Origin: a virus
Virus record (IMG/VR): IMGVR_UViG_3300029612_000021
Strand: one strand, 5' to 3'
DNA length: 38,550 nucleotides
Below are positions 29,957-31,738 of this stretch, in pieces. Positions within the stretch are counted from its first letter, which is position 1, and every line of letters starts with the position of its first letter. The translations under genes were made by a program, and so were the position numbers. Below the pieces are notes generated by a model. It was not told the DNA's origin, ran no database searches, and saw only the letters and a program-made list of their open reading frames with translations.

Positions 29957-30126
29957 GGTTTGTGTGTGACGCCTGCCAGGATATTACGAACATCGAGGCA
30001 GACCGGATGGAGATCCAGGGCGACAAGCTGATGGTGTACAGCCGCGGGCGGCTGGTCTACGTTGCGGATCTGGGGCAGATCATGTTAGCCAAGCTGACGC
30101 CGACGGGGAAGGAAACAAAATGCTGA
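29953..30126 (+). CDS. hypothetical 57-aa protein
   Basis: ATGA coupling to the upstream gene. The stop overlaps the methyltransferase start. Confidence 0.4.
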   Translation: MRFVCDACQDITNIEADRMEIQGDKLMVYSRGRLVYVADLGQIMLAKLTPTGKETKC

Positions 30127-30872
30127 CGCATCTGAGCCTGTTTTCCGGGATCGGCGGGCTTGATCTGGCTGCCGAGTGGGCCAAATTTACGACCGTCGGG
30201 CAGTGTGAGTTTGCCGACTACCCGACGAAGGTGCTGGAAAAGCACTGGCCGGACGTGCCGCGCTGGCGTGATGTCCGGACGCTGACAAAGGAGAGTTTTT
30301 ATGAGCGGACAGGCCTACGAACAGTTGACGTTATTTCCGGCGGATTCCCATGCCAGCCCTTCTCCGTGGCTGGAAAGCAAAAGGGCAAAGGGGATGATCG
30401 ATACCTCTGGCCGGAGATGCTCCGAGTTATCACCGAGCTGCGCCCGCGTTGCGTTGTCGGTGAGAACGTTTCTGGACTTGTTCGAATTGCGCTTGCGGGA
30501 ATCCTTTCCGAACTGCAAGGCGTCGGCTACGAAGCAAGGGCTTACAGTTCTGCGGCTTGGGATGTCGGCGGACTGCACAAGGGAGAGAGAATCTTTATCG
30601 TGGCCGCGGCCAACGACGGGCGCGCCGCTGTGCGGCGGAACACACAACTTCCGGCAGATGGTGGCACTGAGAGACGCGGGGGTCGTCACGGAGGAGGAGC
30701 GGAAAAACCTGACCTGTGGAAGCGGTGGGAAGTCGAACCCCGCCCTTATGGAGTGGCTCATGGGATTCCCAATCGGGTGGACAGACTTAAATGCCTCGGA
30801 AACGCTGTAGTGCCGCAGCAGGCATACCAGATTTTCCGGGCACTGAAGGAGGAGATGGACCGATGGACATAG
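30120..30872 (+). CDS. DNA (cytosine-5)-methyltransferase, short form
   Basis: All in one frame: FSGIGG (motif I), GGFPCQPFS (IV), GENV (VI), ERIFIVA (VIII), RVDRLKCLGNAVVPQ (X). Confidence 0.85.
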   Translation: MLTHLSLFSGIGGLDLAAEWAKFTTVGQCEFADYPTKVLEKHWPDVPRWRDVRTLTKESFYERTGLRTVDVISGGFPCQPFSVAGKQKGKGDDRYLWPEMLRVITELRPRCVVGENVSGLVRIALAGILSELQGVGYEARAYSSAAWDVGGLHKGERIFIVAAANDGRAAVRRNTQLPADGGTERRGGRHGGGAEKPDLWKRWEVEPRPYGVAHGIPNRVDRLKCLGNAVVPQQAYQIFRALKEEMDRWT

Positions 30873-31738
30873 AGCAAACCGCGATTGAGCGGCTGCGGTT
30901 TGCAGCTGAAATGTCCCTGCGGGTATACAAGCAGCCGCTTGTGATTACCTACTCGGGCGGCAAGGACTCGGACGTGCTTTTGCATCTGGCGGGCAAAGCA
31001 GGTATCCAGTATGAGGTGCTGCATTCGCTGACCACGGCGGACGCGCCGGAGACTGTCTGGCATGTGCGGGATACCTTCCGGCGGTTGGAGCTGGCTGGCG
31101 TAAAATGCGACATCGATACCCACAGCACATCGGACGGCGGGAATGTGACCATGTGGAACCTGATCCCGCGCAAGCTGATGCCGCCGACACGGCTGGTGCG
31201 CTACTGCTGTGCAGAACTCAAGGAGACCAGCGGCCGCGGGAGGTGGATCGCGACCGGCGTCCGGTGGGCCGAGTCGCAAAAGCGCAAATCCCGCGGCGTT
31301 ATGGAAGCGCTTCATAAGAATAAGGAAAAGCGGCTGACGCTTATGAATGACAACGACGAAAGCCGAATGATGATGGAAAACTGCCAGCTCAAGGGGACCC
31401 GAACGGTCAATCCGATTATCGATTGGCCGACCGAATCCATCTGGGATTACTGCGCAGCAGAAAAGATCTGTATGAATCCGCTTTACGCCTGCGGCGAAGA
31501 TCGCGTGGGCTGCATCAATTGCCCGATGGCGGGCAAGCACCGGAAGGTGCAGCTCGCGCGCTACCCCGGATACCGGGATGCCTACATCCGGGCTTATGGC
31601 CGGATGATCGAGGAGCGCCGCAGCCGCGGCCTGCCGTGCGATTGGCAGACCGGCGAAGACGTCCTGCATTGGAGCCTGGAGGACGGCGTGCTGCCGGGAC
31701 AAATGGTTCTTGAAGGAATGGAGGAGGACACGCTATGA
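30863..31738 (+). CDS. PAPS reductase-family (PP-loop ATP pyrophosphatase) protein
   Basis: 291 aa from the ATG at 30863. PP-loop YSGGKDSDV and a Cys cluster CGEDRVGCINCP near the C-terminus. Confidence 0.75.
   Translation: MDIEQTAIERLRFAAEMSLRVYKQPLVITYSGGKDSDVLLHLAGKAGIQYEVLHSLTTADAPETVWHVRDTFRRLELAGVKCDIDTHSTSDGGNVTMWNLIPRKLMPPTRLVRYCCAELKETSGRGRWIATGVRWAESQKRKSRGVMEALHKNKEKRLTLMNDNDESRMMMENCQLKGTRTVNPIIDWPTESIWDYCAAEKICMNPLYACGEDRVGCINCPMAGKHRKVQLARYPGYRDAYIRAYGRMIEERRSRGLPCDWQTGEDVLHWSLEDGVLPGQMVLEGMEEDTL

Follow-up and report, generated by a model that had tools for sequence, protein, structure and literature searches.

A conserved +1-frame gene overprinted on a viral C5-cytosine methyltransferase gene most likely encodes the DNA-recognition subunit of the enzyme

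The viral contig IMGVR_UViG_3300029612_000021 (38,550 nucleotides, hereafter the window, i.e., the whole stretch of DNA that was analysed) carries on its plus strand the gene of a C5-cytosine methyltransferase large subunit (positions 30120-30872, hereafter alpha), within which a second open reading frame (ORF) lies entirely in the +1 frame of the same strand (30301-30810, hereafter beta). Judged by its conservation among relatives, this +1 ORF is a real, conserved overprinted gene, and its product is most likely the DNA-recognition subunit of the methyltransferase, i.e., a proposed small subunit bearing the variable/target-recognition region and motif IX. We consider it likely that a two-polypeptide C5-methyltransferase is here read in two frames from one stretch of DNA, its chains assembling non-covalently. 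Such a layout is rare but already known, as that of the nested two-polypeptide C5-methyltransferases, and what our analysis adds is that this kind appears to be widespread and largely unannotated. That beta is translated, that the chains assemble, that the assembly is an active enzyme and that beta determines its specificity is what we infer from sequence comparisons.

The outer gene encodes a protein of 250 aa, featuring in one frame the motifs I (LFSGIGG), IV (GGFPCQPFS), VI (ENV), VIII (RIFIVA) and X (LGNAVVP), with a non-conserved linker between VIII and X. It matches Pfam PF00145 over residues 3-168 (E 1.8e-35), TIGR00675 (dcm) with 105 bits (E 5e-30), which exceeds the cut-off of 100.65 bits, and phrog_363 over its full length (E 5.8e-76); its profile alignment covers residues 14-169 of M.HhaI. 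Motif X corresponds to alpha residues 226-232, of which L226, G227, N228, V230 and P232 are invariant among the relatives, and it evolves under selection in the alpha frame. As expected of a C5-methyltransferase, alpha thus has motifs I, IV, VI and VIII in one chain and motif X at its C-terminus, but the same chain lacks the variable region (target-recognition domain, TRD) and motif IX. Neither of the latter was recognised by Pfam or by profile alignment between motifs VIII and X of the alpha frame, where the translation has no match and is unconserved as protein. The G+C content at third codon positions (GC3) of the alpha frame goes from 0.75 before the overlap to 0.547 within it and back to 0.75 after it, while it reaches 0.71 in the embedded frame and 0.751 in the neighbouring PAPS-reductase gene. 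The total G+C content is flat (0.60, 0.588 and 0.583 before, within and after the overlap, respectively).

The embedded ORF encodes a protein of 169 aa and ends with a TAG codon (30808-30810) within the segment encoding alpha motif X. Its start signals (30287-30303) consist of AAAGGAGAG (30287-30295), in which GGAG (30290-30293) forms the Shine–Dalgarno (SD) sequence, followed by a 7-nt spacer and by the ATG (30301-30303). These signals are embedded in the alpha codons T-K-E-S-F-Y-E, the ATG itself being built from the Tyr codon and the next codon, which starts with G. Across the relatives, this Tyr codon is TAT in 124/124 sequences, and CAT occurs in six more, to be compared with 271 TAT and 518 TAC (34% TAT) for Tyr codons elsewhere in the same genes. 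An SD-like core is present upstream of the beta ATG in 138/142 loci. Regarding its product, beta is matched by no family model of Pfam or NCBIfam; it does match phrog_1008 (“DNA methyltransferase”; E 4.4e-14), with residues 3-107 falling on profile positions 32-141. Since alpha residues 219-242 in turn match positions 294-317 of the same profile (E 0.0058), phrog_1008 resembles a beta subunit of the AquI type (overprinted N-terminus, TRD, motifs IX and X). Homologues of beta in our protein collection amount to 895; many of them, at identities as low as about 45%, have a length of 165-169 aa, whereas longer ones reach 197-251 aa. Among the peptides read in the beta frame are GAPLCGGTHNFR and the motif IX-like sequence NPALMEWLMGFPIGW.

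These results confirm what a preliminary description, drawn from the letters of the window alone, had reported about the architecture of the locus, namely the coordinates of the 169-codon +1 ORF and of the methyltransferase gene around it, the GGAG located 7 nt before the ATG, and the presence of motifs I, IV, VI, VIII and X in one outer frame. Its hand counts of GC3 (75/55/75 for the outer frame, 71 for the embedded one and about 75 for the PAPS reductase) are reproduced as well. In contrast, one of the explanations that it put forward, a mosaic acquisition of a lower-GC segment combined with a chance ORF, does not hold, since the G+C content is unchanged (0.588 inside vs. 0.60 outside, which rules out a lower-GC insert) and since the ORF survives in low-GC phages, where such chance ORFs are rare.

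To follow the nested layout in relatives, 160 related loci were taken from viral contigs and genomes of gut Clostridia, of which about 150 are distinct and have a complete outer gene. All loci with a complete alpha, which span alpha identities of 47-98%, have a long +1 ORF that begins with ATG at the corresponding position, and the +2 frame has short ORFs only. In these relatives, the beta ORF opens about 181 nt into alpha, and its stop usually precedes that of alpha by 53-190 nt; the longer alpha is, the longer is beta (250/169, 283/202, 323/240, 447/328 and 481/356 aa for alpha/beta). The two contigs L001 and L003, which encode two beta homologues, show the same nested layout. In L003 (ORFs of 323 and 240 aa), the +1 frame reads as a normal-looking protein, with three xPTPxAxD units followed by NPTWVEWLMGFPPGWT, and the outer frame as Ala/Gly/Glu-rich filler. 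Depending on the relative, the variable region of the beta frame is made of one to about eight tandem (W/F)PTPxAxD modules. In four relatives (L114, L121, L165 and L168), alpha stops early, keeping motifs I-VIII, and beta has the variable region along with motifs IX and X, which is the distribution known from M.AquI. It was also observed that the first ~117 alpha residues are near-identical between the window and relatives having a very different motif VI-VIII segment and variable region (e.g., L003 2820-3791), a pattern that looks like the outcome of modular recombination of specificity cassettes.

The frame under selection was determined from codon-position variability, using 12 diverged sequences for the short architecture, i.e., that of the window. 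The most variable position is alpha position 3 from 30120 to about 30590. It then shifts to alpha position 1, equivalent to beta position 3, up to about 30790, and beyond that point, in motif X, it is alpha position 3 again. This switch of the wobble position indicates that it is the embedded frame that encodes the variable region together with motif IX, the outer frame being merely kept open there. The long architecture displays the same switch, held over about 250 codons, and its beta frame is full of stops just beyond the beta ORF. Divergence at four-fold degenerate sites points in the same direction: in the variable region, it is 0.51 in the beta frame vs. 0.12 in the alpha frame, and it ranges from 0.38 to 0.53 (beta frame) and from 0.12 to 0.27 (alpha frame) in all four architecture groups. 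Altogether, the 65-70 C-terminal codons of beta are under purifying selection in the +1 frame.

On these grounds, the overlap can be divided into successive segments. In the first one (30304-30600), the amino-acid information is carried by alpha motifs IV (30339-30365), VI (30459-30470) and VIII (30588-30602), while the same DNA, in the stop-free +1 frame, gives the first ~100 residues of beta, which are only weakly constrained. The second segment (30601-30783) corresponds to beta residues 101-161 (WPRPTTGAPLCGG...NPALMEWLMGFPIGWT), which comprise the variable/target-recognition unit and motif IX (30736-30780), and the alpha frame there is a Gly/Ala/Arg/Glu-rich linker, not conserved as protein and kept open. 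Over most of the overlap, only one frame at a time holds the amino-acid information: motifs IV-VIII are specified in alpha, the variable region and motif IX in beta. Strong simultaneous constraint on both frames is confined to about 23 codons (30726-30794), where WEVEPRPYGVAHGIPNRVDRLK, which leads in to motif X in alpha, shares its DNA with GGKSNPALMEWLMGFPIGWTDL, motif IX in beta, and where all three codon positions are little variable (0.25-0.30, 0.09 and 0.10-0.12). In long relatives, the motif IX peptide and the alpha lead-in to motif X are encoded in tandem without overlap, each being under purifying selection in its own frame. Finally, from 30795 to 30872 (motif X LGNAVVP at 30795-30815 and the C-terminal helix), the wobble position is back to alpha position 3.

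As for the first ~100 residues of beta, alpha four-fold divergence, which is 0.65 ahead of the overlap, is lowered to 0.45-0.47 over motifs IV-VIII, a drop also seen in codon families unable to create +1 stops, and alpha synonymous variability is lowest (0.35) at the beta start. This drop implies that the N-terminal part of beta imposes some constraint, though far below that of its last 65 residues. Suppressed synonymous variation in the overlap had been predicted in the preliminary description, which had also named homologues of the +1 product and conservation of its ORF and SD as points to check, and all three are borne out (0.65 to 0.45-0.47; 895 homologues; about 150 loci open and 138/142 with an SD-like core). 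Of the origins that it envisaged, a same-strand overprinted gene is the one upheld, owing to the ORF, ATG and SD kept in about 150 relatives, to the protein homologues and to the +1-frame purifying selection in the 65-70 C-terminal codons. It had also pointed to strings typical of a family of methylase-linked proteins in the +1 product, and these proved real (phrog_1008 match at E 4.4e-14, 895 homologues). Its idea of a frame-switch ancestry between two methyltransferase-associated families turned out to be partly right, in an unexpected manner: the family of methylase-linked proteins is made up of these very +1 ORFs. The strings are the +1 reading of methyltransferase genes themselves, TSGRRC being that of RYLWPEM and LFPADSHASPS that of GGFPCQPFS, and a C5-methyltransferase lies one base behind beta in 4/4 distant members (see below).

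Within the window alone, the open +1 frame is weak evidence and proves nothing by itself. When alpha codons were replaced by synonymous shuffling, the +1 frame remained open over the first 95 beta codons in 8.5% of trials, and 22% of the trials in which beta codons were shuffled left alpha free of stops in the central region; besides, the window (~59% G+C) has many long alternate-frame ORFs. Because such window-only values are merely mildly unlikely, the significance of the beta ORF rests on comparative data: across relatives, the median P of a frame staying open under such shuffling is 0.01 in the first 95 codons of beta and 0.015 for alpha in the variable region. Each of these two regions contains about six stops in the +2 frame.

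The assignment of motif IX to beta was approached through spliced-frame sequences. In 117 loci, complete-looking methyltransferases were obtained by following alpha as far as motif VIII, continuing in beta and then returning to alpha. A profile built from 20 of these sequences covers M.HhaI residues 14-289 in a single alignment and puts NPxxxEWLMGFPxGW on M.HhaI motif IX (RKLHPRECARVMGYPDSY), whereas with a profile of 20 plain alpha proteins, the M.HhaI alignment ends at residue 180. We regard this alignment to motif IX as supporting the assignment, not as decisive. For the spliced chimera of the window, the Pfam match was not extended; for the longer chimera of L003, it was, reaching positions 2-321 of 324 with a gain of 2.7 bits. 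An AlphaFold2 (AF2) model of beta computed with 112 homologues has a mean predicted local distance difference test (pLDDT) score of 55, with values of 35-55 for residues 1-100 and of 61-82 for residues 101-165, the latter being modelled as three helices. A Foldseek search of the PDB with this model yielded nothing meaningful (best E 4.9).

According to the mechanism that we propose, alpha would provide the large domain, which binds S-adenosylmethionine and holds the catalytic centre (motifs I-VIII), followed by a probably disordered linker and by motif X. Translation of beta would begin separately, in the +1 frame, from the SD and ATG (30301) that belong to it; the DNA of alpha motifs IV-VIII would give its first ~100 residues, and its C-terminal unit of about 65 residues, the sole strongly conserved part of beta, would supply the variable/target-recognition element (WPRPTTGAPLCGG...) and motif IX. 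By analogy with M.EcoHK31I, a two-polypeptide enzyme to which we return below, alpha and beta would then associate non-covalently to give the active enzyme, and the N-terminal extension of beta may serve to bind alpha. Independent initiation is favoured because the far-upstream ATG and SD are conserved and because both frames are open well past the points where selection switches.

Several observations nonetheless weigh against this reading. The extension of the M.HhaI alignment to motif IX is worth only about 1 bit (91.6 for the spliced profile vs. 90.7 for alpha only), and a C-terminal profile restricted to motifs IX-X matched no PDB sequence, even at E 10. A single-sequence AF2 model of the spliced alpha-beta-alpha chimera, computed without alignment, has a pLDDT of 36, too low to be usable. 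Furthermore, beta starts about 100 codons upstream of its conserved part, for which we have no explanation, and the published TRD of M.EcoHK31I is placed in alpha, not in beta.

The succession of frames could also be that of a single polypeptide synthesized through two programmed ribosomal frameshifts, a +1 shift past motif VIII, around 30600, and a -1 shift ahead of motif X, around 30785; these would restore the order I-VIII, TRD, IX, X. Indeed, the segments under frame-specific selection come in precisely the order that a single-chain C5-methyltransferase would have, splicing the frames gives what reads like a complete enzyme, and the second junction is C-TTA-AAT in most close relatives, which is slippery-like. 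Yet such a mechanism requires neither an open beta frame for about 100 codons before the first junction nor an open alpha frame for 60-290 codons across the variable region, and both are kept open; nor does it require the conserved ATG/TAT codon or the SD. At the junctions themselves, no conserved slippery site after which the left frame would soon close was found: they are unconserved, with 58 and 43 distinct versions and no common slippery heptamer, and the beta ORF of long relatives stops directly after GWTE, without CTTAAAT. To our knowledge, there is no precedent for two efficient frameshifts in one gene. Moreover, separate alpha and beta genes restore the activity of M.EcoHK31I (PMC2836561). 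Such a double frameshift hence appears improbable to us, if less so than the two readings that deny beta a function.

In the first of these, alpha alone would be the enzyme; the +1 ORF would result from G+C-rich codon usage and go untranslated, its “homologues” being mis-called dcm frames. This would agree with the shuffles, which make the open frame in the window not very improbable (0.085 and 0.22), with the abundance of long alternate-frame ORFs in the window, e.g., a 314-aa ORF antisense to the next gene, and with the fact that the beta strings LFPxDSxASPS and TSGRRC are the +1 reading of alpha motif IV and DDRYLWPEM. But purifying selection in the variable region acts in the beta frame, not in the alpha frame, whose translation there is low-complexity and unconserved, and alpha would be an enzyme without recognisable TRD or motif IX. 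In addition, the ORF with its ATG and SD is still present where alpha identity is down to 47%, as well as in low-GC phages, and TAT is used at the beta start in 124/124 sequences. According to the other reading, the pattern would be the functionless relic of an ancestral single-frame methyltransferase decaying after two compensating frameshifts. An ancestral pair of frameshifts is plausible as the origin of the layout, and some entries are fused or broken (the database proteins P0069, P0071 and P0081, and an E. coli prophage copy with an internal stop, all described below). Still, selection is ongoing, with each segment in its own frame, in about 150 diverged sequences from several host phyla, and both frames are open and their start signals maintained, where a relic would gather stops. 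Frame-specific purifying selection thus excludes both a non-functional ORF and a pseudogene for practical purposes, and we give each of them very little credence, leaving the two-polypeptide enzyme as the reading that we retain.

Nested pairs also occur in low-GC phages and in distant phage lineages. In the low-GC Paenibacillus phage Lily, gp62 (254 aa) corresponds to alpha and gp63 (163 aa) to beta, the latter starting 184 nt into alpha and carrying the GenBank annotation “g62 internal gene”, and the low-GC Lactobacillus phage Lc-Nu has a nested pair too (ORF40). A search with the 73-residue beta unit retrieved 1052 cluster representatives at E <= 0.001. Single-chain relatives, in which the beta unit would be in frame with motifs I-VIII, were sought among these matches, and ten long ones proved devoid of PF00145. 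The few fused proteins of the databases (P0069, P0071 and P0081) are frame-switched hybrids that miss some motifs. In all three, the alpha N-terminus (motif I) is joined to the beta frame, and in P0071, the switch occurs inside motif IV, with loss of the catalytic Cys; they may stem from sequencing or assembly indels, or represent natural frameshift variants.

At larger distance, the C5-methyltransferase motifs were found one base behind beta in 4/4 members checked at the DNA level (L168-L171), with an overlap extending from the very start of the gene in several cases. One beta protein of this distant type matches 71 phage records, from Mycobacterium, Vibrio, Ralstonia, Pseudomonas, Salmonella, Acinetobacter and Microcystis phages, usually under a feature annotated as cytosine methyltransferase. 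Another distant pair was observed in a prophage of E. coli PCP07014 (NZ_CM129871.1, L172 1729-2509), in which alpha starts with GTG at 1729 and beta with ATG at 1733; both frames are broken at ~2094-2107, and in the PGAP annotation, the locus is a pseudogene (“DNA cytosine methyltransferase”) that contains an internal stop. Two distant relatives have their nested pair invaded by homing-endonuclease-like sequence: a LAGLIDADG domain lies within the beta ORF of L171 (20-1666, P0347; Pfam E 1.2e-07), and an HNH-like ORF (CKHCHDFWH) occupies the third frame between motifs IX and X in L168 (814-1194).

Overall, we lean slightly towards the existence of a class of more than 1000 clusters at 50% identity, in which the specificity module is always in the +1 frame, overprinted on the catalytic gene for 170 to more than 400 codons, and which would span phages of Firmicutes, Actinobacteria, Proteobacteria and Cyanobacteria without being covered by any Pfam or NCBIfam model. 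If so, it would rank among the largest and longest same-strand overlapping-gene families of prokaryotic viruses; M.EcoHK31I and M.AquI would both be samples from a single continuum, and the module in beta would consist of the variable region and motif IX, to which motif X may or may not be added. The “conserved hypothetical” proteins that contain LFPxDSxAS, TSGRKC or TWPRSGMMxNG would then be beta subunits, their N-terminal conservation being imposed by the motifs of the other frame.

Turning to the neighbourhood, two minus-strand ORFs lie opposite the methyltransferase and PAPS-reductase genes (30315-30761, 148 aa, and 30758-31702, 314 aa). Antisense ORFs also occur in G+C-rich relatives (L001 2982-3386 and L003 3015-3524), whereas the nested-pair locus of the low-GC phage Lily has no antisense ORF of at least 100 aa; both ORFs are probably by-products of composition, and the one at 30315-30761 was therefore not retained as a gene. 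The start of the PAPS-reductase gene is likely the ATG at 30863, preceded by GGAGGAG at 30849-30855, which yields a 10-nt overlap with the end of alpha. The longer ORF from 30791 probably does not reflect the true start, and the junction could allow translational coupling between the two genes. Because the PAPS-reductase gene matches phrog_424 (E 1.3e-34) and the ORF at 33760-34194 matches the Holliday-junction resolvase phrog_190 (E 9e-31), the surroundings can be identified as a phage or prophage module for replication and DNA modification. Regarding other methyltransferases, an N6-adenine or N4/N6 methyltransferase gene is located directly upstream of the nested pair in Lily (gp61, L166 583-1014) and in L169 (809-1477), and about 2.6 kb downstream of it in L003 (6382-6723), so that phage methyltransferase genes appear to cluster.

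These findings bear on annotation, since gene callers retain only one frame of such pairs and report either a short “dcm” without recognition domain or a “hypothetical protein”, some loci even being flagged as pseudogenes by PGAP. Ignoring the +1 frame would make any prediction of phage or prophage methyltransferase specificity fail. The family also offers a long same-strand overlap in DNA phages that is statistically strong and comes with hundreds of natural replicates, which makes it a possible benchmark for overlap-aware selection methods and a system for studying how two frames share one sequence. From a functional perspective, the family suggests that oddities such as M.EcoHK31I and M.AquI are in fact common. 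The variable module, with its one to about eight PTPxAxD units, would be swappable between conserved flanks and may help phages to diversify their methylation specificity against restriction. Finally, natural heterodimeric methyltransferases have already been used as platforms for targeted methylation (PMC2836561), and the family could be a source of many new alpha/beta pairs for such engineering.

The closest known system is M.EcoHK31I of E. coli HK31 (recognition sequence YGGCCR; Lee, Kam & Shaw 1995), and the comparison drawn here is with its published description (PMC2836561, PMC3404938). There, M.EcoHK31I is a two-polypeptide C5-methyltransferase (309/176 aa), whose beta gene lies wholly within the alpha gene in another frame, alpha having motifs I-VIII along with motif X, beta having motif IX. 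Both chains are required: an alpha gene from which the beta starts have been silently removed yields an inactive protein, and beta supplied on a second plasmid restores activity. The N-terminal part of its beta overlaps the alpha coding sequence and is partly dispensable, but losing at least 42 N-terminal residues weakens the association, and its TRD is assigned to alpha (PMC2836561, PMC3404938). The window locus shares with this system a small-subunit ORF placed wholly inside the large-subunit gene in another frame, as well as the distribution of motifs I-VIII and X in the large subunit and of motif IX in the small one (the latter with a gain of about 1 bit in the window family), while the need for both chains would extend to it by analogy. 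It differs in that its variable region evolves as a beta-frame protein, which would give beta both the TRD and motif IX; we treat this placement of the TRD as a difference, not as a defining feature. The sizes also differ (250/169 aa in the window), and so does the context, M.EcoHK31I being part of a restriction-modification system whereas the gene of the window has phage-like surroundings, and no endonuclease gene was identified among the neighbouring ORFs that were scanned there. A search of E. coli genome DNA with the window gene returned no match.

With M.AquI, the similarity lies in a natural split in the variable region, with two ORFs in different overlapping frames. The overlap of M.AquI is short. 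Its criterion, a beta subunit with the distal variable region and motifs IX and X, describes L114, L121, L165 and L168, but not the window, in which motif X is in alpha and beta is fully nested, not running past alpha. M.AquI (Agmenellum quadruplicatum, CYCGRG; Karreman & de Waard 1990) is described as composed of alpha and beta subunits (PMC3404938). The Lily gp62/gp63 and Lc-Nu ORF40 pairs are nested at the same relative position as that of the window, but their beta is only about 30% identical to the window beta and its N-terminal region has a W.S...LTWK...LFQL pattern that the window subfamily lacks. A physical basis for the proposed reassembly is given by artificial fragments of M.HhaI, M.SssI, M.BspRI and M.BsuRI, which, cut in the variable region, reassemble (PMC3404938, PMC3439449), although these are engineered pieces without overlapping coding. 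Finally, the tandem (W/F)PTPxAxD modules of the window relatives, which are candidate TRDs, resemble those of multispecific Bacillus phage enzymes. In these C5-methyltransferases (M.SPRI, M.Phi3TI and others), the variable region is a series of tandem target-recognising modules borne by a single chain and read in one frame, whereas the window family has its enzyme split over two frames.

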